Source: Lutisporaceae bacterium (GTDB taxonomy: Bacteria; Bacillota; Clostridia; Lutisporales; Lutisporaceae). From it: 64,000 bases of DNA. The notes beneath the pieces were generated by a model that was not told the origin of the DNA, ran no database searches, and was given only the letters and a program-made list of their open reading frames with translations. Below are positions 24,785 through 53,057 of the stretch, piece after piece (position 1 is the first letter of the stretch; each line of letters opens with the position of its first letter). Where the stretch lies: NCBI GenBank assembly GCA_050950645.1, contig JBMNHZ010000009.1:295515-359514 (forward strand). The letters are read 5' to 3'. The translations under genes and the position numbers were made by a program.

Positions 24785-26449
24785 TGTGATTATCGTGTGA
24801 TAATGTCACCTTGTAAACTATCGTGATAAATGTCACTATGAAGAATGAGGTGCATTATCTAATGTCCCAAAATCAATTGACTCGTTTTGCTGTATTAACT
24901 AAACTAATTGATGGACACATAACTGTCAAACAAGCTGCTGAAGTCTTGATCTTAGTGAACGCCAAATCAAGCGCTTAAAGAAAGGTGTGATGCAAGACGG
25001 CGCTGCGTTCCTCAAACATAAAAATTCTGATCGTAAACCTCAGCATGCTTTTAGTGATGAATTTGTACAAAAAATTGTTAATCTAAAAGAATCCGAATTA
25101 TATAAAGATGCTAATTTCAAGCATTTTCAGGATCTTCTTGAAGAGCATGAGCATATTTCAATAAGTTATGCTGCTCTCCATGAAATACTCAAAAAAGCCG
25201 GTATTCAAAGTCCCAAAAAGAGACGCCGTTTTAAGCCCCATCGCCGTCGCAAACGCAAACCACAAGAAGGTCTTTTAATCCAAATGGATGCCACTCCATT
25301 TGAATGGTTTGGTACCAATGATAAATTTGACTTGCATGGCGGTATAGACGACTCTACGGGAAAAATTGTCGGTCTACATATGACTAAAAATGAATGCCTT
25401 CACGGATACTTTGAAGTGACAAAACAAATCATCCGTAAAAATGGCGTCCCTGTCAGTATTTATGCTGATCGCCATGCTATCTTTCTATCACAAAATGCTT
25501 CCAAGCTAAGTATTGAGGATCAACTTGCCGGAAAGATAGTTAATGATACTCAGTTTGGTAGAGCTATGAAAGAACTTGGAATTACACTCATTCCTGCCCG
25601 ATCAGCACAAGCAAAAGGTCGTGTTGAAAGGCTTTGGGAAACCTTGCAAAGCCGTTTGCCTGTTGAGTTCAAGATTGCAAACGTTAAAACCGTGGACGAA
25701 GCCAATGCCTTTCTCTCAACTTATATTGATAAATTTAACCAGCAATTTAGTGTAGAGCCTGAAGATGCTGAATCTGCTTTTAGAGTATTACCACCTACTA
25801 TCGATTTAGATAAAGTGCTTTGTGTTAAAATCACAAGAACAGTTGATAATGGAGGTGTTTTCTCATTGTATAACAGAAACTTCAAAGTTTTAGAAAATCA
25901 ATCCTCCAATATACTCCCTCCGAGAAAGTCTAAGGTCTACGTACTGATAAGCCCTGTATTTGGAATAAAGGCACAGTATGAGAAAACCACCTTTGATGTC
26001 ATTAACTATATAAAACCAATTAAAGTTACTACACCTTCAGAACCTAAGAAAAAGAAGCCCTGGACTCCGCCAGACAGTCATTATTACAAATATGGTCACA
26101 CATTGATGAAAAAGCTTAACTATGAAGAAAGTGACCAGGAAATCCTCAGAATTCTTGAGGACATATTCCTTAAAAAGTATGCTTAACCCCAATCTAAGAG
26201 AAAAAATTTTAAGTACGGTTGACAATGAGAGGTTCCTATATGATAGCCTTATTGGCGGCCAGCCAGTATGCCCTTAGCCCAGCTCCAGAGAAAAAGCTAC
26301 GGGGCATGAAGGCTTAGCCCGCTGGCTTATCATCATATAGGAGAGGCTCGTTGTCAACCGGATCCTTAAAAATTTTTCTCCTACTGAAAGTGACATTTTC
26401 ATACGATAATTAAGTCACTTTTAGGGTGACATTTTCACAAAGTATTGAC
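24785..26449 (+). mobile_element. ISNCY (ISBst12-like) insertion sequence with a frameshifted transposase
   Basis: Flanked by an 18-bp direct repeat atatttttctttgataat (24767-24784 and 26450-26467). Subterminal inverted repeats gtgataatgtcacctt (left) and agggtgacattttcac (right), with further gtgacatttt/aatgtcac copies at both ends. Confidence 0.6.
24862..26186 (+). pseudogene. ISNCY/ISBst12-like DDE transposase (HTH + rve), N-terminal frameshift
   Basis: ATG 24862 (RBS gaggtg) encodes MSQNQLTRFAVLTKLIDGHITVKQAAEVL and hits a stop at 24976-24978. The +2 frame continues DLSERQIKRLKKGVMQDGAAF... into the 399-aa track ORF. The junction cttgatctt at about 24948 would be restored by one extra G (ttg gat ctt). 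Confidence 0.65.
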
Positions 26450-31649: not shown

Positions 31650-32033
31650 ATGGCAAGTGAAAAGACTTTGAAATTTATCGAAGAAATAAAGAATATGACA
31701 GTTCTCGAATTGGCTGAATTAGTTAAAGCAATCGAAGAGGAATTCGGTGTAACGGCAGCAGCTCCTGTAGCAGTTGCAGGACCGGCAGCCGCAGATGCAG
31801 CAGCAGCCCCGGCAGAAGAGCAGACGGAGTTTAATGTAGTTCTTGCAGAAGTAGGAGATCAAAAAATAAAGGTTATTAAGGTTGTCAGAGAAGTGACAAG
31901 TCTTGGTCTTAAAGAAGCAAAGGATCTGGTGGATGGTGCTCCAAAGCCAATAAAAGAAGGCGTAAGCAAGCAGGAAGCAGAAGAAATAGCTGCAAAGTTC
32001 GCAGAAACAGGCGCAAAGATAGAAATAAAGTAA
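31650..32033 (+). CDS. rplL: 50S ribosomal protein L7/L12
   Basis: 127 aa: Ala-rich hinge and the C-terminal domain [26 protein letters not shown]. Confidence 0.95.
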
Positions 32034-39075: not shown

Positions 39076-39102
39076 ATTCTAATATTTAAAATACGATATA
39101 AG

Positions 39103-39143
39103 GAGTATGCTCATCATGTAATTGTGATGAGCATACTCTGTTT
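39103..39143 (+). terminator. Terminator after hutH
   Basis: 14-bp perfect stem gagtatgctcatca / tgatgagcatactc followed by tgttt. Confidence 0.6.
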
Positions 39144-39347: not shown

Positions 39348-39472
39348 ATTTGTATAATAAAACATACCAAATATCACATTATTATACAAATATTACAAAA
39401 TTATGCTACAATTTAACAAAATGAAGAAAAATATACAGAAAATGTAATTAATATAATATCAATGCTTGGGAG

Positions 39473-40015
39473 TTGATTGCAATAGCAATTAAGCTGATTA
39501 TAATTTCAATGCTTCTGCTGTTTGCACTGGTATCCGACCTGAGGACTTACAGCATTAAAAACTACATTACTTATGGTTTTATGCTGATAGGATTAACATT
39601 AAATTTCGCAATGGAAGGTTTAAGAGGACTGGCATTTTCACTTCAGGGCATAATAATTCCTGCTTTATTTCTATTTATCTTATATATTATGAGGATTATA
39701 GGAGCGGGGGATGTCAAACTTTTATGCGCTGTAGGGGCAGTAATGGGTGGGGTTTTTTCATTATATGCCGCAATATGCTCTTTCATCTGCGGAGGCTTTA
39801 TTGCTTCAAGCCTCATGCTGGCAAGAAATAATGCCTCAGAGAGATTTAATCATTTTATTCTGTATCTCACAAGCTGTTTTCTGACTATGAAAATTCTTCA
39901 ATATACAGACTTTGGGGACAGAAAGGATGGAGGAAAGTTTCACTTCTCATTAGCTATAGCATCAGGAACTATTGCAGCTGTAATTATTAAGAGTTTTGGA
40001 ATGTGGGGGGCATAA
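39473..40015 (+). CDS. Prepilin peptidase, A24 family (TadV/CpaA-like), copy 1
   Basis: Polytopic 180-aa protein with the two Asp motifs (VSDLRTYSIKN and IIGAGDVKLL). The TTG start is uncertain. Confidence 0.75.
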   Translation: MIAIAIKLIIISMLLLFALVSDLRTYSIKNYITYGFMLIGLTLNFAMEGLRGLAFSLQGIIIPALFLFILYIMRIIGAGDVKLLCAVGAVMGGVFSLYAAICSFICGGFIASSLMLARNNASERFNHFILYLTSCFLTMKILQYTDFGDRKDGGKFHFSLAIASGTIAAVIIKSFGMWGA

Positions 40016-40017
40016 AC

Positions 40018-41118
40018 ATGGCAAAACTGAACATAGTTATCGCAGAATGCGATGTGAATTATGCAAGGGGATTATTGGAATATATTAATTCAAATCATTT
40101 CTCATCCTTCATGGCCAGCTGTTTTACAAAGCTTGATTCCTTTGCCGCATATTTTGAGAAGCAACCTCCTGTAGATATTCTGATAATCAGTCCGGATTTC
40201 TATGATATTTCGGTCGAAGGTCTTGAAGTCAAGCTTAAGATAATACTATCAGACGGAGTTTTGAAACGTGAGTATCCCGGATATCAAGTAGTTAATAAAT
40301 ACAACACCGGAGATAAGCTGATCGGAGAGGTTTTGTATTTGTACTCCAAAACCAATAACCAAGAGATTAGACTAACATCCGGTTCAAAAAATACAGAGTT
40401 TGTAGGTGTATACTCTCCTGCAGGAGGCACAGGAAAATCTACAATAGCAGCGGCCTTAGCAACACAATGTATTGAATTGGGCATAAGATCATTTTATTTA
40501 AACTTGGAATCCATTCAATCCACCGGGGTATTTTTCAATTCATACAATAAAAGAAATCTTTCCTATGTTTTCTATTACCTTAAAGAAAAATGCCGGAATC
40601 TTTCTTTTAAAATGGACGGAATAAAATGCACCGAGGACGGAGTGGAATACTTTAATCCGCCCGAAAGCCCCATGGAGTATGAGGAGATTAACCCGGAAGA
40701 GTTGGAGCAGCTTCTGAAGGGGATTAAAGATATGGGATGCTATGATTATGTTTTTATTGATATGTACAGCAATTTTGATTTAAAGAATTATAAAATAATG
40801 GAATTATGTGACCGTATTGTTCTTGTTTCTCTGTATGAGCCAATTGCATCACATAAAAGAAAGATACTGTTTAACGAGCTTGCCAAGCTGTGTGATAGGG
40901 ATAAAGGTAGTATTTCTGATAAATTTATAATAGTAATAAACAAGCATAAGGGAAGAAATGATGAAGATATTGAAAACCTTGAAGAGAATATTCCCGCAGC
41001 CGTTAGGATTCCCGAGTTTTCAAATACATTAATAAGAGAAGATGGAAGGATTTTTAATGATGATGATAATTTCAGGAGAGCCATCAACCGGATTATTGAT
41101 ATAATATCATGCCGATGA
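40018..41118 (+). CDS. TadZ/CpaE-like pilus-assembly ATPase (pseudo-receiver N-domain + MinD/ParA-type domain)
   Basis: Deviant Walker A in VGVYSPAGGTGKSTIAAALA, with a receiver-like N-terminal third. ATG 40018 follows tgggggg. Confidence 0.7.
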   Translation: MAKLNIVIAECDVNYARGLLEYINSNHFSSFMASCFTKLDSFAAYFEKQPPVDILIISPDFYDISVEGLEVKLKIILSDGVLKREYPGYQVVNKYNTGDKLIGEVLYLYSKTNNQEIRLTSGSKNTEFVGVYSPAGGTGKSTIAAALATQCIELGIRSFYLNLESIQSTGVFFNSYNKRNLSYVFYYLKEKCRNLSFKMDGIKCTEDGVEYFNPPESPMEYEEINPEELEQLLKGIKDMGCYDYVFIDMYSNFDLKNYKIMELCDRIVLVSLYEPIASHKRKILFNELAKLCDRDKGSISDKFIIVINKHKGRNDEDIENLEENIPAAVRIPEFSNTLIREDGRIFNDDDNFRRAINRIIDIISCR

Positions 41119-41128
41119 GGTGGGATAA

Positions 41129-42367
41129 ATGGAAGACAGGGAGAAGAATCTGATAATAAATAATTTGAGGAAAGAAATAAGAGAAAGCCTGGACGTTAAA
41201 AGCCACATTACCGATGAAGATATAAATGAGTTGATAACCGACAAGGTTTTCGGGGAAGCCAGGCTTCGGCCTATGAGTATCAGAGAAAAGCAGGAGCTGA
41301 TAGCCCTGCTCTTCAATTCCATACGAAAACTTGATATACTGCAGCCGCTTATTGATGATAAGACTATAACCGAAATAATGGTGAACGGCGAGGAAAATAT
41401 TTTTATAGAAAAACAGGGAAGGACATATAGAATAGAAAATAGCTTTGAAAGCCGGCAAAAGCTTGAAGATGTCATACAATCAGTCGTTTCAAAGGTAAAC
41501 AGAGTCGTAAATGAAGCATCACCGATAGTGGATGCCAGACTGGAAGACGGGTCAAGAGTAAATGTGGTACTTCCTCCTATAGCTTTGAACGGACCTATAC
41601 TTACAATAAGAAAGTTTCCTGAAAAGCCTATATCGATGAAGGACCTGATTGAATGGGGATCCATTTCAAGTGAGGCTGCCGAAGTCCTGGAAAGGATGGT
41701 AAGAGCAAAATACAACATTTTCATATGTGGGGGTACCGGCTCGGGCAAAACCTCTTTTCTTAATGCTCTTTCAGATTTCATACCCCAGGATGAACGAATT
41801 GTTACAATTGAGGATCCGGCTGAATTACAAATAAAGCAAATAAAGAACATAGTTAAGCTGGAGACCAGAAACGCGAATACCGAAGGTAAAGGAGAAATCA
41901 CCATCAGGGATCTGATAAGGACATCTTTGAGAATGAGGCCTGAAAGAATCATCATAGGTGAGGTAAGAGGAGCTGAAGCCCTGGACATGCTTCAGGCAAT
42001 GAATACGGGACATGACGGTTCAATATCAACAGGCCATGGAAACTCCACCGCAGATATGCTGTCACGCTTGGAGACAATGGTGCTAAGCGGTTCGACGATG
42101 CCTTTGGAGGCTATAAGGCAGCAGATTTCTTCAGCTATTGATATTATAATACATCTTTCAAGATTCAGGGACAGGACGAGAAAGGTTGTGGAAATAGTGG
42201 AGGTTACAGACTGCAAAGAAGGAATAATAGGACTCAATCCCCTTTTTGAATTCAGGGAAAAAGACGGTTCAACACCGGAAAGGGTTGAAGGGTGCCTTGT
42301 AAGGACCGGTAATCCTGTAAAAAACCTGTCAAAGTTCAGAATGGCAGGGATAAATGAAGTTGTTTGA
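41129..42367 (+). CDS. tadA: Tad secretion ATPase (CpaF/TadA, T2SSE family)
   Basis: Walker A ICGGTGSGKTSFLNAL, Asp-box VTIEDPAEL, Walker B ERIIIGEVRGAEA, His-box NTGHDGSISTGHGNS. Confidence 0.9.
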   Translation: MEDREKNLIINNLRKEIRESLDVKSHITDEDINELITDKVFGEARLRPMSIREKQELIALLFNSIRKLDILQPLIDDKTITEIMVNGEENIFIEKQGRTYRIENSFESRQKLEDVIQSVVSKVNRVVNEASPIVDARLEDGSRVNVVLPPIALNGPILTIRKFPEKPISMKDLIEWGSISSEAAEVLERMVRAKYNIFICGGTGSGKTSFLNALSDFIPQDERIVTIEDPAELQIKQIKNIVKLETRNANTEGKGEITIRDLIRTSLRMRPERIIIGEVRGAEALDMLQAMNTGHDGSISTGHGNSTADMLSRLETMVLSGSTMPLEAIRQQISSAIDIIIHLSRFRDRTRKVVEIVEVTDCKEGIIGLNPLFEFREKDGSTPERVEGCLVRTGNPVKNLSKFRMAGINEVV

Positions 42368-42376
42368 GGTGATTAT

Positions 42377-43132
42377 ATGGCAGCATCTCCCATTGACTAC
42401 AATACATATGTGATGACATTAAGAGAAAAGGTTTTCTGCATTCTTGCGGCTTGCGCAGTTATATTTGCAGCAGGCTATATTTTCTACAGAAATGTTTTAC
42501 TCTCGTTGCTATTAATGCCATTTGCCCTTTTATATCCCAGAATCAAGACAAAGGAGATCATAAAAAAAAGAAAAAACGAGCTGAATTTGCAGTTCAGAGA
42601 AGCCCTCTATTCGCTGGCATCGTCATTATCCGTGGGAAAATCAATAGAAACGGCGATCAGGGATTCGCTTAAAGAGCTTTCCATACAGTATCCCGATGCT
42701 GATACATATATATTGATTGAACTTGAGCAAATAAACAGAAGAGTTGAGATGAATGAGACCATAGAGGAAGCCTTGATCGATTTTGCCCAAAGATCACATT
42801 TGGAGGACATAATAAACTTTGCCGATGTTTTTGCAATATGCAAGCGTACAGGAGGCAATCTTGTCCAGGTAATTAAGAATACCTCTGAGATAATTAGCGA
42901 GAAAATTGATACTAAACAGGAGATTAATCTTTTGCTTATGGAAAAAAGGCTGGAGCATAAAGTGCTTAATCTGATGCCAATTCTTATTGTAATCCTGCTG
43001 TCCTCCAGCGCTGAGGAATTTATGGCCCCGGTATTTTCAGAGCCTGCCGGAAGAGCGGCTATGACTTTTTCATTAGTACTTTTTGCTGCTGCATACTTTA
43101 TATCGAAAAAAATTATGGATATTGAGGTATGA
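42377..43132 (+). CDS. tadB: TadB-like inner-membrane platform protein (T2SSF family)
   Basis: 251 aa with TM segments flanking a cytoplasmic helical domain. Sits directly after the ATPase gene. Confidence 0.75.
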   Translation: MAASPIDYNTYVMTLREKVFCILAACAVIFAAGYIFYRNVLLSLLLMPFALLYPRIKTKEIIKKRKNELNLQFREALYSLASSLSVGKSIETAIRDSLKELSIQYPDADTYILIELEQINRRVEMNETIEEALIDFAQRSHLEDIINFADVFAICKRTGGNLVQVIKNTSEIISEKIDTKQEINLLLMEKRLEHKVLNLMPILIVILLSSSAEEFMAPVFSEPAGRAAMTFSLVLFAAAYFISKKIMDIEV

Positions 43133-43135
43133 CCT

Positions 43136-43999
43136 ATGCTGGCGATATTGATAATTGAAATTATGGTTTTTGGGTTTCTTTGTTTCTATGCAAAGGACAA
43201 ATATGAAGATTTCACAAGAGCACAGCGAAAAAAAGCGTGTATATCCATAACTATAATGCCTGCCGCTTTATTAATTGCAGACAAGCTTATTATTGGGCGA
43301 TTCATTGCTTATGAAAGGAAGATCAGTATAAAGCTTGCAGAACTTTATGGGGGCAGGGATGTCAAGCATATGCTCAAGCTTCATATTACTCATAAGGTAA
43401 TCCATTTGACTGCTGCTCTATTATCAGTCACTTTGCTTGGGGTATTAATGGACAAGCCTGGTATCGGCTATGCAGTGTTTGCTTTGTTAATACTTGTGAT
43501 TGTTTTTTATGCTTCAGACAGAAGGTTGGATGAAAGAATTAAGAAAAGAAATTTTAGTATCCGATATGATTTTCCTGATTTTCTTAATAGGATGGTTCTG
43601 CTTATTAATGCAGGAATGACTGTATTCCGAGCCTGGGAGAAGACTGTAAGAGACAGAAAGAATATGACTCCTCTCTATGAAGAACTGAGAATAACCTATA
43701 TTGAGATAAAGAATGGAAAACCTGAAATAGAAGCTTATGAGGACTTTGCGAGACGATGCAGAGTTAAGGAAATAACCAAGTTTGTTACTGCTGTTATACA
43801 GAACCTGAGAAAAGGCAGCAGTGATTTGGTCCCCTTACTGAAGCTTCAATCGAATGAATGCTGGCAGCTTAGGAAGAGTTTGGCAAAGAGGTTGGGGGAG
43901 GAGGCTTCGACCAAGCTGGTGCTTCCACTGATGATTATGTTTGTAGGAATACTGATTATTGTAATACTTCCTGCAGTAATGCAGTTAAAATACTTATAG
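43136..43999 (+). CDS. tadC: TadC-like inner-membrane platform protein (T2SSF family)
   Basis: 287 aa with the same architecture as the preceding gene. The start is 3 nt after the tadB stop. Confidence 0.75.
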   Translation: MLAILIIEIMVFGFLCFYAKDKYEDFTRAQRKKACISITIMPAALLIADKLIIGRFIAYERKISIKLAELYGGRDVKHMLKLHITHKVIHLTAALLSVTLLGVLMDKPGIGYAVFALLILVIVFYASDRRLDERIKKRNFSIRYDFPDFLNRMVLLINAGMTVFRAWEKTVRDRKNMTPLYEELRITYIEIKNGKPEIEAYEDFARRCRVKEITKFVTAVIQNLRKGSSDLVPLLKLQSNECWQLRKSLAKRLGEEASTKLVLPLMIMFVGILIIVILPAVMQLKYL

Positions 44000-44066
44000 A
44001 AGCGAGACCCGAAGCGCGCAGCCTGACCTGAAAGGATATCAAATATAAATTATGGGAGGTAGTAAA

Positions 44067-44279
44067 ATGTTAAAACAAATAAAGGGGCTTATATCAGAGG
44101 AGGAGGGCATAAGCACGGTTGAGATTGTGGTAATTATTGCAATTCTTGTAGGAATAGCATTACTCTTTAGAAAGTCGATAACTGCTTATGTGCAGAAGGT
44201 TATAAGTAATTTTATTGATACTGCTCCTACTGTCGAAAACTTGGAGGTTGATATGGAAGCACCTTTGCCGAAGGATTAA
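44067..44279 (+). CDS. flp: Flp-type type IVb prepilin
   Basis: 70 aa: short charged leader MLKQIKGLISEEEG, then ISTVEIVVIIAILVGIALLF (G|xxTVE Flp-like processing site followed by a hydrophobic helix). ATG 44067 follows gggaggt. Confidence 0.75.
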   Translation: MLKQIKGLISEEEGISTVEIVVIIAILVGIALLFRKSITAYVQKVISNFIDTAPTVENLEVDMEAPLPKD

Positions 44280-44294
44280 TACCTTGTAAGTGGA

Positions 44295-44957
44295 TTGTGG
44301 AGGTGGTGGTTTCTGGACAAGCATAAAAGTGAGAACGGAAGCTATACCGTTGAAGCTGTCATGGTGTTTGTGATTATTATGTTTGCAGTATTAGCACTGC
44401 TATTTTCTTTCCTGTACATGCAGCAAAAAACAAGCCTTGAAAGCATTGCCTCATTTGCTGCCCAGCAGGGGGCGGAAATATGGCCGGACAGTAGAAGAAA
44501 TATCGTGGATGAATTAATGATTTCAAGTATAACCTATGAAGGATACTTTGAAAAAGCGTCCTCCGGGGATGGTAAATCAGAAATGGTGTTAAGAATGGAT
44601 GTGGGGAATGATTTGTCGGGGCAAAAAGCTGCTCTGATAGGGGAAGCACTGAGTAAAAGAATTGAAAGTACGATTCTGAACCCTGAGAGCACAAGGGTAA
44701 AGATTACATTCAATAATAATTTCCTAAGGAGAAGTATCATAATTGAATTAAACCAGGAGATTAAAGTTCCTTTAGGCGGCTTAAAGGAATTTTTCGATGG
44801 CAAGGATACACTGGTTTTAAGCGCTCGATCCGCTGCAACAGTAACAGAGCCTGATGAATTTATCAGGAATGCCGATCTAATGGCAGAGTTATCAAAGAAG
44901 TTTGGGGAGAAGATTGATTTGAAGGATTTGGCAGACAGAATAAGTTCAAAGCAATGA
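44295..44957 (+). CDS. TadE/TadF-like pseudopilin
   Basis: N-terminus ...SENG|SYTVEAVMVFVIIMFAVLALLF resembles a TadE-type leader plus helix. The start codon (TTG 44295) is uncertain. Confidence 0.6.
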   Translation: MWRWWFLDKHKSENGSYTVEAVMVFVIIMFAVLALLFSFLYMQQKTSLESIASFAAQQGAEIWPDSRRNIVDELMISSITYEGYFEKASSGDGKSEMVLRMDVGNDLSGQKAALIGEALSKRIESTILNPESTRVKITFNNNFLRRSIIIELNQEIKVPLGGLKEFFDGKDTLVLSARSAATVTEPDEFIRNADLMAELSKKFGEKIDLKDLADRISSKQ

Positions 44958-44985: not shown

Positions 44986-46998
44986 ATGTACCAAAATAAC
45001 GGCTGCATAAAAAAAGAGAGAGGAGCAATTACTGTTTTTCTGGCACTTATTTTCATGTCTCTGATACTTTTTGCAGGAACAGTAATTGATATTGTAAGAA
45101 TTACTGCTGCAGACCGGAGGGTCCAAAGCGCCTTAAATACCTCAGCCAGGTCCGTATTGGCGGAATATGAAAGTGAGCTTATAGGCAATTATGGAATATA
45201 TGGGGTTAATGCTGCAGGAGCAAATGTAAAAGAAGATTTTTACAGATACATGAGTGTGAATCTAAAGGAACGGCATGAGAACATAAACTTTATAGAAATT
45301 GACATAGATTTTGAAGATATTCAAATACAAGGTATGGACAGCCTGCTGAAGCATGAGGCATTTAAGAGGCAGGTGCAGGAATACATGAAGTACAGAACAC
45401 CGATTAAATCGGCTGATACTCTGATTGAGCAGCTGCAGAATATTAAACTGGATAAGAAGATTAATTTTATAAATAGTGAGAAGATAACCAGGGATAAGGC
45501 AAGAGAGCTGAGAGCAAAGGTAAATGAGGCAAATTCAAAGCTTACAGCCATTAAAAAAAAGCTCACAAATTTAAGTGCAAAAAAACTTGAGGATTTAAGG
45601 AATGAGCTTTTAGAAGCTTTGGAAATCAATCGCTCGATTTACGACGGGAATAATAAAGGCCTTCTGGTTGATTATATTCAAAGCAGGGATGATACAAATG
45701 TTAAGGCTAAAAAAGGCGAATTCATCGGAAATCAGTCCCGGGAGTTTGCCGGCATAATGGGAAACAGCGAAAATATTGCTCCCGGGATTCAAAGATATTT
45801 AGAGGAGATAAATAAAACACTCCTGAAGGTAAAACCGCTTCAGAAGGAACTCGATATTATGAAAGAAAGCCTTGAAAGCCTGAGGGAGGAGATGGATAAA
45901 TTAAATGATGACGAAATAAATGAAGTCAGAGACGATATTGATAAGGTTAAAGATAAAATCATGCAGCTTGAATCACAAATTGATGAGGAAATATCAGGGT
46001 TGAAAGTGAAGCTTGGAGAGACTGCTCTTGAGGGTTATTTCCTGGAGCCGGAGATTGTGGAAATCGACAAAAAGGCGGAGGATCTGAAAGAATTTATTGG
46101 CAAGACAAAGGAAGACATTGAGAAAGCATTGCTTAGGAAACTTGAAAAGGATTGGCTGATAGCCCCTGAAGAATTTGAAGACAGCAGTATTATTACTGGC
46201 GATAACCTTGAAGAAATGGATGAAAATGCATATTTCAGCTTATCAATTCAGGAGGAAGAAGCTGAGAAAAGAAATAATGAAATAGTAAATATAGCGGAGA
46301 GACTTTCGGATGCAGTTAAAGATACTGCTTCAAGTGCATTGGAGAAGATAAATACCATTGAATATGTGATGGACAAGTATACCTTCCTGACCTCCAGGAC
46401 AAAAAGGAATCATTTCTTCAACAAGGGTGAAGTGGAGTACATTATCAGCGGGCCGGATATTAATGAAGAATACAGCCAAATAAAGAATACTGAGTATTAT
46501 ATAGTGACAAAGGTGCTGCTTCAGGTTTGGGCATTGAGATTTGCATTAAATACGATAGATGCTTTTATCACAAGCACTGTAGTATTTCCTCCCCAAAGAC
46601 TTGCTTTTGCTCTTGCTGAAGGTGCACTGGACTCAAGTCTCGATATGTTTAATTTGCTTAATGGCGAGTCTGTGCCAATATGTCCGAAGAGCTTTACGGC
46701 AATTAAACTAAAGTATTCGGATCACTTAAGAATTCTGCTTTTGATGAAGCCTGAGGAAGAAATCCTGAGAAAGGCGAGACAGCTTATACAAGTAAATATT
46801 AAGCAGGTTATAGATGCGGAGACAGGGCTTCCAAGGTCGGATTTCAGATTAGGAGATTATAGTACTGTTATCTTTGCCTCTGTAAAGGCAAAGGTAAACC
46901 TTTTCTTTCTTCCTCTTTTGAAGGTTGACAGGCTGCTGCCCGGCAGCTTTGAAAACGGAAGGTATATAATACGAAAACAAATATATGTTGGCTATTAG
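44986..46998 (+). CDS. Large TadG-like pilus-associated protein with a long central coiled coil
   Basis: 670 aa. N-terminus KKERG|AITVFLALIFMSLILFAGTVIDIVRITAADRRVQSALN (Tad N-terminal domain pattern), an approximately 300-aa K/E/L-rich helical middle, and a hydrophobic C-terminal region. Confidence 0.65.
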   Translation: MYQNNGCIKKERGAITVFLALIFMSLILFAGTVIDIVRITAADRRVQSALNTSARSVLAEYESELIGNYGIYGVNAAGANVKEDFYRYMSVNLKERHENINFIEIDIDFEDIQIQGMDSLLKHEAFKRQVQEYMKYRTPIKSADTLIEQLQNIKLDKKINFINSEKITRDKARELRAKVNEANSKLTAIKKKLTNLSAKKLEDLRNELLEALEINRSIYDGNNKGLLVDYIQSRDDTNVKAKKGEFIGNQSREFAGIMGNSENIAPGIQRYLEEINKTLLKVKPLQKELDIMKESLESLREEMDKLNDDEINEVRDDIDKVKDKIMQLESQIDEEISGLKVKLGETALEGYFLEPEIVEIDKKAEDLKEFIGKTKEDIEKALLRKLEKDWLIAPEEFEDSSIITGDNLEEMDENAYFSLSIQEEEAEKRNNEIVNIAERLSDAVKDTASSALEKINTIEYVMDKYTFLTSRTKRNHFFNKGEVEYIISGPDINEEYSQIKNTEYYIVTKVLLQVWALRFALNTIDAFITSTVVFPPQRLAFALAEGALDSSLDMFNLLNGESVPICPKSFTAIKLKYSDHLRILLLMKPEEEILRKARQLIQVNIKQVIDAETGLPRSDFRLGDYSTVIFASVKAKVNLFFLPLLKVDRLLPGSFENGRYIIRKQIYVGY

Positions 46999-47003
46999 GG
47001 TGG

Positions 47004-47951
47004 TTGAAATTGCATAGATTTTGTAAGAAGCTGAACTCCAGAGGTTCGATAACAGTTGAGGCTTGTGTTGTATTTCCCATTTTTATAAGCGTATTTTTTC
47101 TGCTGCTTTTTCTTATCAAGTTTACATGCACAGGTATGGCGCTTGATTATGCTGTAAATGAAGCAGCCAAGGAAATAGCTGCAGCAGCATATCCCATATC
47201 CTTTGTAAATGAACTGGAGGATGAAAAGCTGCAGGAGTATGGGAATACAAAAATACCTACACTGGAGGAAGAGCTGGAAAAGCTTGTTAGCGGAATAGCA
47301 GGAACCAGTTTCGATAATATTCTGGGCGTCATTATATCGGAGAACCTTAAAGAGACGGATTTTACTGATGCAGTACAGGATGTATTAAAGGACTACAGCA
47401 GAGGAATTATCGGAAATATTGTTGATGTGATGGCCCCTGCATATTGGGATATGAAATCCGCCGTCAAGTATTCCGCTGCCGAAGCGATTATTAAGAAACA
47501 CCTGGAAAGCCCGCTGATCAATCGAGAAAATATAAAGCTGCAGCTTGTTGAATTTCCCCAGGGCAGAGAAGAATACAGCGTAAGGTCATCAAGTGCGATA
47601 TATGGTAAGCTGGGACTGATTCCGGAAAAGGATTTCAGCAGAGACGACATTGTGCTGCAGCTAAGTTACGATTATAAGGTGAATCTTCCATTCCTGGGGC
47701 CTCTTAATATACGAATGATTCATACCGCTGTGGAAAGGGCATGGATCAACGGAAGCTTCGGGATACTGACAGCTGACGACGAAGGCTTTAATTTGGAATC
47801 GGAAGGCAGAATTGTATATATCACAAGGACGGGTATCCGCTATCATGAAGAGGACTGCAGGTACCTCAGGAAAAGTAAAATCCCGATTATAATTGAAGAG
47901 GCTGAAGGGTCAGGCTATACTCCATGCAAGGTTTGCAAACCGCTGGGCTAG
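47004..47951 (+). CDS. TadE-like pseudopilin with a C-terminal His/Cys zinc-ribbon-like motif
   Basis: N-terminus NSRG|SITVEACVVFPIFISVFFLLLFLI. C-terminus IVYITRTGIRYHEEDCRYL...GYTPCKVCKP. The start is TTG 47004 or TTG 47010. Confidence 0.6.
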   Translation: MKLHRFCKKLNSRGSITVEACVVFPIFISVFFLLLFLIKFTCTGMALDYAVNEAAKEIAAAAYPISFVNELEDEKLQEYGNTKIPTLEEELEKLVSGIAGTSFDNILGVIISENLKETDFTDAVQDVLKDYSRGIIGNIVDVMAPAYWDMKSAVKYSAAEAIIKKHLESPLINRENIKLQLVEFPQGREEYSVRSSSAIYGKLGLIPEKDFSRDDIVLQLSYDYKVNLPFLGPLNIRMIHTAVERAWINGSFGILTADDEGFNLESEGRIVYITRTGIRYHEEDCRYLRKSKIPIIIEEAEGSGYTPCKVCKPLG

Positions 47952-47980
47952 GCTGCAAAATTACTAACAGGGAGGATATT

Positions 47981-48433
47981 ATGAGGTATCATTTACTGAC
48001 AGATGATGCAAGATTTTTCCCATATATAACAGTTGTAGTATTGCTTGCTGCAGCTGCAATTATCGATATCAGGGAGAGAAGAATACCGGATAAGCTGGTG
48101 CTTGCAGGTACTGCCGGAGGATTGGCCTTTGTTTTGATTAACCCACAAATAGATTTGCTTAACAGCCTTATGGGCGGTGTAACAGCGGGGTTGGTGCTGC
48201 TTCTTGTTTATTACATTACAAAGGGTGGCATCGGACTTGGAGACGTAAAGCTTTTTGGCTGCTCAGGAATTTATCTGGGTTTCGAAAACACTGTCTCCGC
48301 AATGTTGATTTCTGCAGTTCTAGCTGGATTATTCAGTCTGGCACTTATATGTATAAACCGTAACAACAAGAAACGTGAAATACCTTATGCACCCTTTATA
48401 TTGGCAGGTGTACTTACGGTTATAATATTCTAA
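47981..48433 (+). CDS. Prepilin peptidase, A24 family, copy 2
   Basis: Asp motifs IDIRERRIPD and GIGLGDVKLF. ATG 47981 follows gggagga; the track ORF starts upstream at 47924 and overlaps the previous gene. Confidence 0.75.
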   Translation: MRYHLLTDDARFFPYITVVVLLAAAAIIDIRERRIPDKLVLAGTAGGLAFVLINPQIDLLNSLMGGVTAGLVLLLVYYITKGGIGLGDVKLFGCSGIYLGFENTVSAMLISAVLAGLFSLALICINRNNKKREIPYAPFILAGVLTVIIF

Positions 48434-48457: not shown

Positions 48458-49795
48458 GTGGAAAATATAGGATTAGATTTTGAATACGGTTATGATAATG
48501 ATGCAGCCGGTAGTTGTCTGGTTCTTAAGATTAATAATGATACAAAGCTGCTGAATCATCAGGTAGAGATTTTATGTCAGAATCCCAATTCTTCTTTTGT
48601 TCCATTTCATATAAAGCGAGAAAATGAAAATGTTTTTATCTGTTATAATATAACCTCCAAAATATCATTATCTCAGTATATTGAAAGAAAAAGCCTAAAG
48701 AAGAAGGAGCTTCTGGATTTGCTCAGGAACATTGTAAAAAATCTGATGCTTCATGGCAATTACTTATTGGATCTTTCAGGCTTCATCATCCATTCGGATT
48801 TTATATTTGTTAACCCTGCGACAGCGGAAGTTTCGCTTTTATATGTACCTGTTCCCTGCAGCAGGAATTCAAAGGAGATATTAAGATCCTTTTTTAAAGA
48901 TATTGTGGTTAATTCATCCAGTAACGATGACGATGCAAGGGATAATTACCTGCAAAGGATATTGAATTATTTAAAATCGGATACGTTCAGCCTCATTGAA
49001 TTTAACAGATTGATTGTAGATTTGAGAAACAGTGGAGAATTATGCGAATATGAAAAGAGGACAGCTGATAGAGAAGCAGCCGCTGAAATGGATACCCCCT
49101 GCGGCAAGAGTCTTGAGGAAAGGGCTTATGCAGAGGTTGGAAAGAGCAAGAGTATCAGAAGCATAATTTTACTGCAGCCATTCTTTTTAATAGCTGTAGT
49201 TATTGCGTACTTATTAATGGCAGTGAGAGGAACGGGGGATATTATATCTATTTCGGCAGTGGTGCTTATTGCAGCCGCATTGGATATCCTTGCAATTAAA
49301 AAGATAATGGATTGGGAATGGAAGAGGGTACCGGTAGAAGATACTCATCTTACAGCACAAGATAAAGCAAAGGGCGGCACGGGCTGCAGGGACAAAAGTA
49401 TCAGAAGCAGGTATAAACAGGTGATTTCATTACCCGATGTAGTGAAAGCCAATGATACAATTTTAATCTCCGAAGTTCCGAAGGATTGCAATCCATATCT
49501 GGAGAGCATAGGGTCCAATAGAGTTGAAAGAATAGTAATTAATAAGAATAAATTTTTAATAGGCAGATTGGGCAGTATGGTCGACCATATTATTCAGGGA
49601 AATACAATAGGAAAGCTTCATGCAGAAATTAAAGTAAATGAAGGGCTTTTTTACATAAAGGACCTTAACTCGAAAAACGGAACTTATGTGAACGGCGTAA
49701 GAATTTCCGGCAATAATGAATGTGAAATAAAGGAAAATGATATAATAAGGTTTTCAAACTATGAATATGTTTTCAGAAATCAGAGAGCTGAATAA
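48458..49795 (+). CDS. Membrane protein with an uncharacterised N-terminal domain, two TM helices and a C-terminal FHA domain
   Basis: 445 aa. TM pair IILLQPFFLIAVVIAYLLMAV / ISISAVVLIAAALDILAI. C-terminal FHA pattern FLIGR...HAEI...YIKDLNSKNGTYVNG..I.....I..NDIIRF. GTG start 5 nt after tggagggg. Confidence 0.75.
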   Translation: MENIGLDFEYGYDNDAAGSCLVLKINNDTKLLNHQVEILCQNPNSSFVPFHIKRENENVFICYNITSKISLSQYIERKSLKKKELLDLLRNIVKNLMLHGNYLLDLSGFIIHSDFIFVNPATAEVSLLYVPVPCSRNSKEILRSFFKDIVVNSSSNDDDARDNYLQRILNYLKSDTFSLIEFNRLIVDLRNSGELCEYEKRTADREAAAEMDTPCGKSLEERAYAEVGKSKSIRSIILLQPFFLIAVVIAYLLMAVRGTGDIISISAVVLIAAALDILAIKKIMDWEWKRVPVEDTHLTAQDKAKGGTGCRDKSIRSRYKQVISLPDVVKANDTILISEVPKDCNPYLESIGSNRVERIVINKNKFLIGRLGSMVDHIIQGNTIGKLHAEIKVNEGLFYIKDLNSKNGTYVNGVRISGNNECEIKENDIIRFSNYEYVFRNQRAE

Positions 49796-49823
49796 GAATT
49801 AAACATGATAGGGGGTGCCCCTG

Positions 49824-50039
49824 ATGAAGCTTCATTTTATATACATATTTATTGGAATTTCAACTCTTACTCTAAACCTTATACTTACTCTCCATATAAT
49901 CAGGAAACATAAAAATGAGGGCTGCCAAAGGAATTGGGATTATGAACAAGTGATAACCTTCAGGCTGTCCGGAAAAGAAAGCATTGAGGGTATTACTACC
50001 GCAGCAGCGGCCTGTGATGATACGGTGCCTCTGGAATAA
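49824..50039 (+). CDS. Small hypothetical membrane protein
   Basis: One hydrophobic helix (LHFIYIFIGISTLTLNLILTL). Weak evidence; accepted only because it sits between two co-directional genes. Confidence 0.3.
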   Translation: MKLHFIYIFIGISTLTLNLILTLHIIRKHKNEGCQRNWDYEQVITFRLSGKESIEGITTAAAACDDTVPLE

Positions 50040-50065
50040 TAATGCCGTGCAGTGGAGGGTGAAGA

Positions 50066-50959
50066 ATGCAAATCGGGAGTATATTAAACGAAAAGTATCG
50101 GATTGACAAATTTTTAGGCAAAGGTGGGACAGCTTCTGTTTATTTATGTACCAATATTGAAATTGGAAACAGGTGGGCTTTGAAGCATATTCCGCCGGAC
50201 AAAACAAATGAAATAGCAATGTCGGAGATTGAAATACTTAAGAGACTGTACCATCCCAGCCTGCCAAGGATTGTTGATGTATTCCGCAATAAACAGGGTA
50301 TTTATATTGTCGAAAGCAATATAGAGGGTATCCCCATGGACAGGATGCTGAAAAAGCATGGCAGCTTTGGACTTGAGAAAGTCACAGACTGGTTTATGGA
50401 GCTTTGTGATATATTGAAATACCTGCACAGCGTCAAGCCAAGGCCTATTATATATAGGGATATGAAGCCGTCAAATATAATACTTACACAGGGCGGCAGA
50501 CTGGTACTGGTTGATTTCGGGGTATCCCAGGAGTACTTTGAGTATGAATTAAGGGACAGTGTTCTTGCGGGTACGAGTGCGTATGCAGCACCGGAGCAGC
50601 TGATAAAAGGGGGAAAGACAGATCAGAGGACAGATATTTACAACCTGGGTGCAACAGTGTATCAAATGCTGTATGGCAGGCTGGCAGGCGGCACAAATGA
50701 CAAAGCTGGTTCTATCAAAGGCAAGGCAGCAGCGAAGATGGGCAGTATAATTTCCAAGTGTATGGAGAACAGGCCGGAGGACAGATACCAGAGGGTAGAA
50801 GATATACAGAAAGAGCTGGAGGCTGTAAAGAGTATGCTGGCAGCGGGCAAGGTAAGGCAGGGAATTGTTTTTAAGCTTGAGATGGCTTCAATAGCAGCAT
50901 TGTCGGCAGTCTCATATGCTGCTGCGGTACTGGGCGCATTGTATTCGACGTCGAAATAA
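50066..50959 (+). CDS. Hanks-type Ser/Thr protein kinase with a C-terminal membrane anchor
   Basis: GKGGTASVY...WALKHI (ATP-binding Lys), catalytic loop YRDMKPSNIIL, DFGVS, APE. The C-terminal hydrophobic tail is MASIAALSAVSYAAAVLGALY. No PASTA repeats. Confidence 0.85.
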   Translation: MQIGSILNEKYRIDKFLGKGGTASVYLCTNIEIGNRWALKHIPPDKTNEIAMSEIEILKRLYHPSLPRIVDVFRNKQGIYIVESNIEGIPMDRMLKKHGSFGLEKVTDWFMELCDILKYLHSVKPRPIIYRDMKPSNIILTQGGRLVLVDFGVSQEYFEYELRDSVLAGTSAYAAPEQLIKGGKTDQRTDIYNLGATVYQMLYGRLAGGTNDKAGSIKGKAAAKMGSIISKCMENRPEDRYQRVEDIQKELEAVKSMLAAGKVRQGIVFKLEMASIAALSAVSYAAAVLGALYSTSK

Positions 50960-51113: not shown

Positions 51114-52305
51114 ATTTTAGGTAAATTGTAAAATGAAGTGTCGCGATAGATAACAAAAGTGTCCCATAGGGACCAACTCAGCTATAATGTTAAGTGACCA
51201 AACCCAACAAAAAGGAGAGAGGTATATGGGACACTTACATTGTAGCAAGATTGAGCATAAAAATAAACACTTAAATTACAGGGAACGGCTGAGAATAGAA
51301 ATAATGCTTAAGGAAGGTGCCGGCACAAAGGAAATTAGTGAAATAATTGGTTGCAGCCAGAGGACTATACAAAGAGAGCGAAAACGCGGTTTAATAAAAC
51401 AAATTAATTCGAACTTGGAATATTACCAGGTATATGACGCAGATTATGCCCAGAACGACTATATAGCAAAACATGAATGTAAGGGGCCAGGACTAAAAAT
51501 AGGGCACGATCATAAATTGTGCGAGTATATAGAAGAAAAAATCAAAGCAGGCTGGTCGCCGGACATAATTGCAAAAGAGATTAGAAAAAAGGCAGAATTC
51601 AAAGATACAAGAATATGCACAAAGACAATATACAACTATATAGATAAGAATGTTTTTCTAAATATCAGTTATAAGGATTTAATATATGGCAGGTATCGAA
51701 AGAGAACAGGTACAGGAGTAAACAGGCCATCTTACAAGAATATAAAAGGTCGTAGCATAGATGAAAGGCCATCTAGTGTTGATGAACGACAAGAAGTGGG
51801 ACATTGGGAAATGGATTTAGTGTTAGGCAAGAAAGGAGGAAGCAAAAGCGTCTTACTTACAATGACAGAACGAGTAAGCAGACGTGAAATCATTCGAAAA
51901 CTGCCTGATAAAAGCCAAGAAAGTGTAATAAAGGCGCTGGATGTAATGGAACGGCAAATGGGGCGAATTAAGTTCAAGGATACATTTAAAAGCATAACAG
52001 TTGATAATGGTTCAGAGTTTTTAAACAGTTCGGAAATGGAGAGGTCTTGCCTTGGTAAGAAAAGAACAAGAACGATGGTATTTTACGCACACCCATATAG
52101 TGCATATGAACGAGGGAGCAATGAGAATATGAACCGGATGATACGCCGCTTTATACCCAAAGGAGCAGATATTGGTAAATATAGTAAACAGGAAATAAAG
52201 CGCATCGAAAATTGGTTAAACAATTATCCAAGGAAGATCCTGGATTACTATACTCCACTTGAAGCCTATAATCAGGTTGCTTAACAGAGGCGACATTTAA
52301 TGTTG
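51114..52305 (+). mobile_element. IS30-family insertion sequence (ends uncertain by about 10 bp)
   Basis: One IS30-type transposase ORF. A 19-bp direct repeat caatttatgggcataccaa lies at 51095-51113 and 52306-52324. Inverted repeats gtaaattgtaaaatgaagtgtcgc (51121-51144) versus gcgacatttaatgttgcaatttat (52290-52313); the right one overlaps the repeat. Confidence 0.65.
51226..52284 (+). CDS. IS30-family transposase
   Basis: N-terminal HTH (ISEIIGCSQRTIQRERKRG) and a DDE core (HWEMDLV ... TVDNGSEF ... HPYSAYERGSNEN). ATG 51226 follows aaaggagaga. Confidence 0.85.
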   Translation: MGHLHCSKIEHKNKHLNYRERLRIEIMLKEGAGTKEISEIIGCSQRTIQRERKRGLIKQINSNLEYYQVYDADYAQNDYIAKHECKGPGLKIGHDHKLCEYIEEKIKAGWSPDIIAKEIRKKAEFKDTRICTKTIYNYIDKNVFLNISYKDLIYGRYRKRTGTGVNRPSYKNIKGRSIDERPSSVDERQEVGHWEMDLVLGKKGGSKSVLLTMTERVSRREIIRKLPDKSQESVIKALDVMERQMGRIKFKDTFKSITVDNGSEFLNSSEMERSCLGKKRTRTMVFYAHPYSAYERGSNENMNRMIRRFIPKGADIGKYSKQEIKRIENWLNNYPRKILDYYTPLEAYNQVA

Positions 52306-52871: not shown

Positions 52872-53057
52872 TTATATATTGCATTGTAGTAAGTATTTTT
52901 GCTTAATACTGCTGCATTTGAATAAGGATAGCTAAAAGAGGCAATATTAAAATAGGTGTGCTTTAATTGTGCGGACAAACCAAAAGCGTTACTATTTAGG
53001 GGGATTTTTTGCTTTTGGCTATTTTAATTTATTTAAATTTAAGGGGTGAAAGACTTT

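Follow-up and report, generated by a model that had tools for sequence, protein, structure and literature searches.

A predicted pseudokinase-FHA membrane protein at the end of a clostridial Tad operon: a conserved locus component that probably gates pilus assembly by phosphorylation

The three distal genes of a Tad pilus operon from a member of the Lutisporaceae (Clostridia; GenBank assembly GCA_050950645.1, contig JBMNHZ010000009.1) are located within a stretch of 64,000 nucleotides (positions 295,515 to 359,514 of the forward strand), which is referred to as the window. In this order and on the plus strand, they encode a membrane protein combining the domains DUF6382 and FHA, a small membrane protein and a Ser/Thr kinase. 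A preliminary description of this DNA had regarded the FHA protein and the kinase as a candidate phospho-threonine checkpoint for pilus assembly. Its account of the genes themselves proved accurate. The three open reading frames (ORFs) match exactly, and the layout given for the 445-residue protein, i.e., an N-terminal domain followed by two transmembrane helices and, at the C-terminus, an FHA domain, agrees with Pfam, hydropathy and an AlphaFold2 (AF2) model. The kinase is tail-anchored and has the catalytic residues of the motifs quoted there, which are invariant in 16 locus-linked kinases, and the placement of the genes at the end of a Tad operon is borne out by a complete Tad set upstream. 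The lack of a PP2C phosphatase in the locus extends to the whole window, in which profiles built from related loci detected neither a PP2C nor a second Hanks-type kinase.

With regard to the pilus machinery, the Tad (type IVc) set is complete, comprising CpaF/TadA, TadB, TadC, Flp, two A24 peptidases and TadZ in one locus (Table 1). A strong terminator (39102-39139) and promoter-like sites (39383-39504) are found just 5' of the operon. At its distal end, the second A24 gene and the genes for the FHA protein, the small protein and the kinase are separated by gaps of 24, 19 and 26 nucleotides, each with a GGAGG-type ribosome-binding site, and terminator-like sites are absent between these genes. 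The short gaps, the ribosome-binding sites and the absence of terminators all argue for membership of the three genes in the operon.

Table 1. Features of the Tad locus and of its surroundings, with positions counted from the first nucleotide of the window.
Feature	Position	Strand	Basis
A24 prepilin peptidase 1, first gene of the operon	39473..40015	+	Pfam Peptidase_A24, E 3e-13
TadZ (atypical receiver domain and ParA/MinD-type ATPase)	40003..41118	+	Eubacterium rectale TadZ, PDB 3FKQ, full-length, E 8e-27; Pfam AAA_31/CbiA matches weak
TadA/CpaF pilus motor ATPase	41129..42367	+	CpaF structures 8rkd/9e24, E 1e-93
TadB platform protein	42377..43132	+	Pfam T2SSF, E 6e-8
TadC platform protein	43136..43999	+	Pfam T2SSF, E 9e-10
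Flp-type pilin	44052..44279	+	Pfam Flp1_like, E 5e-14
TadE-like minor pilin	44295..44957	+	Pfam TadE weak, E 0.004; position kept in related loci
TadG-like/DUF5702 protein, 670 residues, central coiled coil	44986..46998	+	Pfam matches to Tad (PF13400) and to DUF5702, each close to the threshold
Second TadE-like protein, 315 residues	47004..47951	+	Pfam TadE weak, E 0.0016; position conserved
A24 prepilin peptidase 2, directly upstream of the FHA gene	47924..48433	+	Pfam Peptidase_A24, E 1e-18
Predicted pseudokinase-FHA membrane protein, 445 residues (DUF6382, transmembrane hairpin, linker, FHA)	48458..49795	+	
DUF6382 domain, residues ~12-190, predicted to be kinase-like in fold and to lack catalytic residues	48491..49027	+	
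Transmembrane hairpin, residues 236-254 and 262-280, loop of ~6 residues	49163..49297	+	Hydropathy and AF2
Motif N-D-T334-I-L-I of the linker ([DE]-T-x-x-[LIV]), candidate for phosphorylation and for binding by FHA	49454..49471	+	
FHA domain, residues ~345-440	49490..49777	+	
Small membrane protein, 74 residues from GTG	49815..50039	+	
Tail-anchored Hanks-type Ser/Thr kinase, 297 residues	50066..50959	+	Pfam Pkinase, E 3.9e-41
IS30-type transposase (HTH_38 and rve), directly after the kinase gene	51187..52284		
UPF0236 transposase, C-terminal fragment, 157 residues	52335..52808		
Further ORF with rve domain	24987..26186		

Related loci were collected by scanning one genome per GTDB species, which yielded 366 relatives, of which the best 80 were taken; their ORFs were scored with phmmer and with hidden Markov models built from the window and the loci. 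The resulting set represents the wider family of the query, with identities down to ~21%, rather than an unbiased census, and covers Lachnospiraceae, Oscillospiraceae, Clostridiaceae, Acetivibrionales, Vallitalea and Paenibacillus. DUF6382 and FHA are combined in one ORF in 75 loci, the window included, and 70 of these contain Tad genes. TadA is encoded in 56 of the 75, 52 have an A24 gene no more than 1 kb away from that for DUF6382-FHA, and the gene for the TadG-like/DUF5702 protein holds the same position in 44 loci. The loci without Tad genes are either truncated contigs or, in two cases from Clostridium, loci of a type VII secretion system (T7SS) with an EssC-like gene of the architecture FHA-FtsKx3 according to Pfam; T7SS use of the family therefore constitutes a small minority in this sample (2/75). 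A word-indexed search returned 101 homologues, nearly all of which have DUF6382 plus FHA. When the DUF6382 domain alone served as the profile in an exhaustive search, 7,515 clusters formed at 50% identity matched with E<=1e-3, and the number was 4,289 for E<=1e-10. In the 150 best matches DUF6382 is N-terminal, and most such proteins comprise 420-570 residues.

Genes for kinases and PP2C phosphatases cluster around the FHA gene. Using a distance of 4 kb, 39 such genes were counted in 538 kb near the FHA gene (29 of 74 loci) compared with 4 in 670 kb of more distant sequence, so that the periphery of these loci served as control. This amounts to a 12-fold local enrichment with a nominal Poisson P of 1e-28, a value that, like the counts, overstates independence because the loci are phylogenetically related and represent the 80 best of 366. 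An association of FHA and kinase genes with Tad loci in other genomes, whose absence would have counted against the preliminary description, is thus apparent.

The order of the genes is likewise retained. In the window, the Tad block is situated between rplL (31650-32033) and rpoB (starting at 53046) and interrupts the usually adjacent rplKAJL-rpoBC genes. Relatives at 52-57% identity have their Tad operon in the same place, immediately 3' of rplL, followed by the genes for A24 peptidase, FHA protein, small ORF and short kinase and, farther on, by rpoB. The FHA-small-kinase order without PP2C is shared by relatives at 52-69% identity. The gene order recurs at 33% identity, where the kinase has 710 residues and an outside domain and a further A24 gene comes next. 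In homologues of 26-27% identity, the slot of the kinase is taken by a PP2C gene. As relatives free of insertion sequences (IS) also lack PP2C, its absence is a feature of the clade, and loss of a PP2C gene through insertion of the IS30 element was rejected as an explanation on the same ground.

For the preliminary description, the N-terminal domain of the FHA protein had matched nothing that could be named. We assign it to DUF6382 (residues 12-161, Pfam E 2e-25), for which structure prediction suggests a kinase-like fold. Since the full-length model gave FHA matches only in Foldseek, residues 1-205 were modeled separately in AF2 from an alignment of 32 sequences, and the resulting model is confident (predicted local distance difference test, pLDDT, 86; predicted TM-score, pTM, 0.83). 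The top Foldseek matches in the PDB are the N-domain of TraF from the pIP501 type IV secretion system (T4SS; 8cba, E 4.8e-6) and YukC/EssB from the T7SSb (6z0f, E 7e-6), while the best TM-score (TMq 0.66) was obtained with the kinase-homology domain of Rv3910/MviN (3uqc/3otv). Altogether 862 PDB chains match at E<=1e-3, and the 50 best listed are all pseudokinases or protein kinases. At the sequence level, hhalign against the kinases of the loci returned a non-significant probability of 0.2, the DUF6382 profile found no match among PDB sequences, and Pfam gave DUF6382 only and no EssB/YukC family. The tentative, non-significant hhalign register is plausible over the stretch between helix alphaC and the catalytic loop; it puts the beta3 lysine at the variable position 24 (Lys in 25 of 68 sequences), the invariant Q35 at the alphaC glutamate and the invariant Y129 at the DFG aspartate, and in this register invariant Lys or Asp residues are absent from the beta3, HRD and DFG positions. 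The N-domain is accordingly predicted, on the basis of the structural model, to be a pseudokinase with a bilobal kinase-like fold that has lost the catalytic residues. The two transmembrane helices, which AF2 extends to residues 230-257 and 262-289, are connected by a short loop only, which puts the N-domain and the FHA domain on the same side of the membrane.

The FHA domain is recognized by Pfam with confidence (PF00498, residues 367-432, E 3.5e-17, 63 bits vs. a cut-off of 20.7 bits), and the same holds true for its fold, the beta-sandwich of 11 strands (pLDDT ~90 in AF2; Foldseek TMt 0.8-0.9 to the FHA domains of GarA, OdhI, FhaA, DgcB and ArnA). In canonical FHA domains, phospho-threonine (pThr) is contacted by a Gly-Arg pair, a Ser-x-x-His motif and an Asn, corresponding to R70, S85, H88 and N107 of Rad53. 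The window protein retains G369, R370, H388 and N407, while Gly385-Lys386 is found where the canonical sequence has Ser-Arg. G369, H388 and N407 are invariant or nearly so across the family. An alignment of the C-terminal 135 residues from 76 DUF6382-FHA proteins of the loci, taken at the species level, revealed two covarying states of the pocket, R370/G385/K386 in 46 and K370/S385/R386 in 25 proteins. Such covariation between two basic arrangements looks like a maintained, functional pocket rather than a decaying one, even if the two states may reflect just one or a few evolutionary events. An adjacent kinase gene is restricted to the Gly385 state (19 of 46 vs. 0 of 30 with Ser385), a pairing that may be due to phylogeny or may indicate a genuine difference in the use of ligand or kinase.

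Candidate ligands for this pocket are present in the FHA protein and in its small neighbor. Bacterial FHA domains favor pT-x-x-[I/L/V], and mycobacterial Hanks-type kinases favor acidic residues ahead of the threonine and a hydrophobic residue at +3. The linker between hairpin and FHA domain contains a motif of this kind around T334, in a segment of low pLDDT. Within the 76 aligned proteins, the T334 column is occupied by Thr in 72, the +3 position by a hydrophobic residue in 75 and the -1 position by an acidic residue in 54; the motif occurs in 68/68 database homologues, in 66 of them 32-34 residues ahead of the FHA Gly-Arg, and its conservation extends to loci that have no kinase. A motif of the same type, D-D-T70-V-P-L-E, is found at the end of the small protein. 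Furthermore, the best-conserved motif of the predicted pseudokinase domain, I-T66-S-K-[ILV], conforms to T-x-x-[ILV] and is located on a loop. Judged by sequence, the T334 and T70 motifs are fitting candidates for FHA ligands, and T334, T70 and T66 may all be phosphorylated.

The small protein probably starts at ATG 49824 (71 residues), for which an AGGGGG Shine-Dalgarno sequence is better placed than for the GTG. A transmembrane helix (residues 8-26) is followed by a basic stretch and a tail, which by the positive-inside rule would be cytoplasmic. Family searches did not return a match. A counterpart of ~71-74 residues with a conserved C-terminal D-D-T-x-x-[L/I] is nevertheless encoded between the FHA and kinase genes in 10 loci, and by its sequence the small ORF is a real gene. 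[quoted passage not shown] G20, G21, K40, E54, D132, K134, N137, D150 and P176-E177 are invariant in the 16 locus-linked kinases, and with this full Hanks catalytic set the enzyme is predicted to be active. In 10 or more loci, with kinase identities as low as ~38%, the FHA gene is still followed by both the small protein and the short tail-anchored kinase.

A precedent for the combination of DUF6382 and FHA exists in T7SS. TseJ, a soluble protein, and TsfJ, with two transmembrane helices, have been named as DUF6382-FHA components of T7SSe/f (Garrett and Palmer 2024, PMC11217815), where DUF6382 was treated as a domain of unknown function without a connection to Tad. The same authors noted, without explanation, that T7SSg/h adjoin Tad genes and that T7SSf has a TadZ-like protein with atypical receiver domain (PMC11217815). 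The window protein resembles TsfJ and TseJ in its N-terminal DUF6382 and C-terminal FHA domain, and TsfJ likewise has two transmembrane helices with both domains in the cytoplasm; kinases and PPM phosphatases are encoded near several T7SSe/f systems as well. TsfJ and TseJ, however, are accompanied by genes for EssC, WXG100 proteins and YukD, whereas the genes studied here reside in Tad loci in 70 of 75 cases, the window included, where no T7SS gene was detected in reach.

Further parallels are provided by pseudokinase hubs. TraF and YukC/EssB have been described as such, and YukC binds the FHA domains of YukB (PMC13037476). According to the structural model, the window protein resembles both as a membrane-anchored cytoplasmic pseudokinase of a Gram-positive envelope machine. 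EssB and TraF, in contrast, have one transmembrane helix and an extracellular domain, whereas the window protein has a hairpin and no domain outside; EssB and EssC are separate proteins, whereas predicted pseudokinase and FHA domain are here part of one polypeptide; and the EssC FHA domain lacks a pThr site, of which the window protein keeps the larger part, often with an active kinase or a PP2C encoded next to the family's genes. Sequence similarity of the N-domain to EssB/YukC or TraF was not detected. In mycobacteria, MviN phosphorylated by PknB recruits the FHA domain of FhaA (PMC12599244, PMC11898655). This system, too, unites a Hanks-type kinase, a membrane-tethered pseudokinase with a pThr near its end and an FHA reader, but it serves the flipping of peptidoglycan precursors, the pseudokinase is fused to a flippase with 14 transmembrane helices, the FHA domain is carried by a separate protein, and a sequence relationship to the window proteins was not detected.

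EssB-EssC(FHA) and PknB-MviN-FhaA are hence nearer analogues than PpkA/Fha1, to which the preliminary description had likened the locus; that likeness is a loose one. In the H1-T6SS (type VI secretion system) of Pseudomonas aeruginosa, PpkA, Fha1 and PppA similarly comprise a locus-encoded Hanks-type kinase and an FHA protein, and there license assembly of an envelope machine. PpkA, however, has a periplasmic sensor domain whereas the window kinase ends at its transmembrane helix, Fha1 is soluble and has no pseudokinase domain whereas the window FHA protein is membrane-bound, and the T6SS locus has a dedicated PP2C, PppA, which has no counterpart in the window, where the machine is a Tad pilus.

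Links between FHA domains and Tad have been described in Proteobacteria, namely a class III CpaF with N-terminal FHA domain (PMC12019362) and the Kil system of Myxococcus (PMC8460266), and Bdellovibrio offers a further one. There as here, an FHA domain is attached to or encoded with a Tad machine and a phospho-signaling input has been proposed. In these diderm organisms, however, it resides on the motor ATPase or on soluble proteins without DUF6382 or a transmembrane hairpin, whereas the TadA of the window has no FHA domain. In archaea, the FHA protein ArnA regulates expression of archaella, but its gene never lies in a locus for type IV pili or for the archaellum. The preliminary description had considered a circuit of this kind undescribed. 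This stands insofar as no paper on a DUF6382 or pseudokinase-FHA protein as part of Bacillota Tad loci, or on DUF6382 as a pseudokinase, was found in the literature that could be searched; it does not hold for the family as such, known as TseJ/TsfJ in T7SS variants, nor for the Proteobacterial FHA-Tad systems. New are the assignment of the N-domain to DUF6382, its prediction as a pseudokinase and the dominant association with Tad.

Considering the gene order, domain content, predicted folds and conservation of motifs and neighborhood observed, the DUF6382-FHA protein is a conserved and unstudied part of clostridial Tad loci that probably gates pilus assembly by phosphorylation. In the reading that we prefer, with a probability of roughly 0.55, it is a membrane pseudokinase-FHA scaffold of the monoderm Tad machine that is switched by threonine phosphorylation. 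The 445-residue protein would act as an inner-membrane accessory of the clostridial machine, with the dead kinase-like domain and the FHA domain facing the cytoplasm and tethered by the hairpin, and it would form a phospho-threonine switch together with the small protein and the tail-anchored kinase. As the kinase has no sensor domain of its own, control could be exerted via the small membrane protein or the scaffold. The kinase would phosphorylate acidic-T-x-x-[L/I] motifs, namely linker residue T334 and, in the small protein's tail, T70, with the invariant T66 loop of the pseudokinase domain as a possible third site. The FHA domain would then read pT-x-x-[L/I] in trans or in cis and thereby shift the oligomeric or conformational state of the scaffold, whose pseudokinase domain might serve as an EssB/YukC-like docking hub that admits or excludes a cytoplasmic Tad component. 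Candidates for docking are TadZ, TadA, the TadB/C platform and the adjacent prepilin peptidase. Dephosphorylation would be due to a PP2C that is encoded elsewhere in the clade of the window and within the locus in other clades. In this scheme, we infer every phosphorylation and binding step, which Tad component is the partner and whether the regulation is positive or negative. A bolder proposal, which we regard as possible but rather doubtful, is that DUF6382-FHA proteins represent the missing cytoplasmic-membrane hub of Gram-positive Tad pili in general, with a fused FHA reader, and that assembly is licensed by T-x-x-L phosphorylation.

Several observations, in addition to the relatedness of the loci already mentioned, weigh against a phosphorylation switch. 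The phosphate-contacting Ser of canonical FHA domains is replaced by Gly385 in the clade of the window, and binding of pThr can therefore not be assumed; of the earlier view of the domain as a pThr binder, the fold and most pocket residues stand, while the canonical Ser does not. In the T7SSb, moreover, the FHA domain of EssC binds its pseudokinase partner without phosphorylation (PMC11217815). The assignment as pseudokinase is based on the AF2 model, as sequence similarity to kinases or EssB is not significant. A search of TadZ, TadA, TadB, TadC, A24 and TadE-like proteins for conserved threonines as phospho-targets did not identify a target: a conserved regulatory Thr was not found in TadZ or TadC, the conserved threonines of TadA are all catalytic or structural, and T169 of TadB (T-S-E-I, conserved in 85% of 61 locus TadB proteins) offers only a weak lead. 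The latter residue is the sole T-x-x-hydrophobic candidate in the Tad core proteins outside catalytic motifs. Finally, in the 66 loci for which 3 kb or more of downstream sequence are available, a kinase gene is present within 4 kb of the FHA gene in 9, a PP2C gene in 10, both in 8 and neither in 39. Either kinases encoded elsewhere exert the control in these 39 loci or phospho-control is not universal, and the protein may be structural first and a phospho-switch second. The earlier idea of a phospho-threonine checkpoint gains from the comparative association, but phospho-control may not extend to the family in general.

The same 39 loci keep the DUF6382-FHA gene at the same place of the Tad operon, as would be expected if the protein were a constitutive structural hub resembling EssB/YukC or TraF, with phosphorylation-independent FHA contacts and with kinase and PP2C as optional additions or directed at other targets. 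This explanation, the most serious competitor although we consider it less probable than a phosphorylation switch, would also account for the replacement of the canonical Ser by Gly in this clade, and it is in keeping with the scaffolding pseudokinases among the best fold matches, with the phosphorylation-independent EssC-EssB contact (PMC11217815) and with TraF, which is essential in its T4SS without an FHA partner (PMC13037476). It is at odds with the 12-fold enrichment of kinase and PP2C genes and with a basic pocket that is retained and covaries around the invariant His388 and Asn407. Above all, the conservation of Thr-x-x-[L/I] in a disordered linker, even where the locus has no kinase, is hard to explain without phosphorylation. 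Unlikely, in our view, is a control of the neighboring A24 peptidase or peptidases, by which the module would time the maturation of Flp and the minor pilins instead of acting on the motor. The A24 gene is the most constant neighbor, given its proximity in 52 of the 75 loci, in locus L006 no other Tad-type gene is situated near that for the FHA protein, and in many loci two A24 paralogues bracket the genes for FHA protein and PP2C or kinase. Adjacency within an operon, however, does not name a partner, a conserved cytoplasmic Thr was not found in the A24 proteins, and in one subtype of the locus the FHA gene directly follows flp with no A24 gene nearby (L021, L023, L034, L035, L038, L041, L048 and L049).

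Two further explanations treat the vicinity of the genes to the Tad operon as fortuitous. That the three genes are a displaced T7SS module (TsfJ/TseJ plus kinase) might be suspected since DUF6382-FHA proteins were first named as TseJ/TsfJ of T7SSe/f, since T7SSg/h clusters adjoin Tad genes (PMC11217815), and since two loci, L024 and L042, have an EssC-like gene, a kinase and a PP2C beside their DUF6382-FHA genes. We consider this very improbable and rejected a T7SS origin for the window, which has no EssC-type gene and no Pfam T7SS domain: 33 of its ORFs were scanned with Pfam and gave no such domain, a scan in which small WXG100 or YukD genes were not specifically searched, and as rpoB and rpoC are the only ORFs above 700 residues, an EssC-like ATPase is absent from the 64 kb. 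Moreover, only 2 of 75 loci are of T7SS type compared with 70 with Tad genes, and the three genes are translationally close-packed in the Tad operon. The two T7SS-type loci (L024, 9917-18231; L042, 9815-18280) each contain two tandem DUF6382-FHA paralogues and a kinase of ~645 residues, besides the PP2C and the FHA-FtsKx3 EssC-like ATPase. As to a T7SSg adjoining Tad in Paenibacillus, a large FtsK-like gene is absent from the ORFs listed for L067 and L086 over the 10 kb downstream of the FHA gene. The kinase, in turn, could be a stand-alone anti-phage (PD-T4-6/MADS-type) or housekeeping enzyme that came to lie at the operon end near IS elements by chance. PADLOC models for PD-T4-6 and mad6 match it at E 1e-45, NCBIfam MADS6 and PglW match at the domain level, and an IS30 element and a UPF0236 transposase fragment are found directly downstream. 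These matches are no better than that of a generic Pkinase model and reach 110 bits vs. an NCBIfam cut-off of 460 bits; kinase and small protein, furthermore, keep their position after the FHA gene across divergent loci, and relatives without IS share the gene order. A chance placement of the kinase hence appears scarcely credible, and the reading of it as a defense system was rejected, as the PADLOC matches are generic kinase-domain matches.

Tad pili serve adhesion and colonization, and their regulation is known mainly from Proteobacteria, where two-component systems, c-di-GMP and polarity factors are involved. To our knowledge, next to nothing has been established on the control and the accessory membrane parts of Gram-positive Tad machines. 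The present survey identifies a large uncharacterized family whose genes, among the loci covered, belong to Tad loci of Clostridia and Paenibacillus in the great majority of cases and are thereby attached to the pili of abundant gut and environmental Clostridia. It also cautions against taking DUF6382-FHA genes as markers of T7SS. Three unrelated secretion or pilus machines of monoderms may, furthermore, share one design principle, the pseudokinase hub. If the bolder proposal applied, a third independent dead-kinase scaffold of a monoderm envelope machine would join EssB of the T7SSb and TraF of the T4SS, licensing would reach adhesive pili of Clostridia including the abundant gut Lachnospiraceae, and TseJ/TsfJ of T7SS would be offshoots of a mainly Tad-associated family.

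Some additional features of these loci deserve mention. Both A24 paralogues of the window bear a G-x-G-D-V-K motif, and two A24 genes bracket the FHA-PP2C/kinase genes in L004, L007, L014, L028, L030, L037 and L040 as well as in L053, L054, L057 and L063; one idea is that the two peptidases process Flp and the TadE/G-like proteins separately. The second TadE-like protein contains in its C-terminal ~45 residues a motif with cysteines (…YITRTGIRYHEEDCRYL…GYTPCKVCKP), and its counterpart in L004 (8161-9354) has a weak precomputed match to CDI_toxin_EC869_like. From sequence, it may be a pilin-like protein with a small C-terminal module of metal-binding or effector-like character. A gene for a Macro domain protein (ADP-ribose binding or hydrolysis) adjoins DUF6382-FHA in three Tad loci (L007, 9467-9982; L008, 9380-9895; L028, from 15295), which hints at a second kind of post-translational signaling in some lineages. 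Between rplL and the Tad operon, the window contains four extra genes. One of them, on the minus strand, encodes an SSF symporter, two encode an AraC regulator and an Oxidored_FMN/Pyr_redox enzyme, and the fourth, an ORF of 509 residues, we take from sequence to be a histidine ammonia-lyase. The interval from the kinase gene to rpoB holds ferredoxin/AFOR genes in relatives vs. IS elements in the window.

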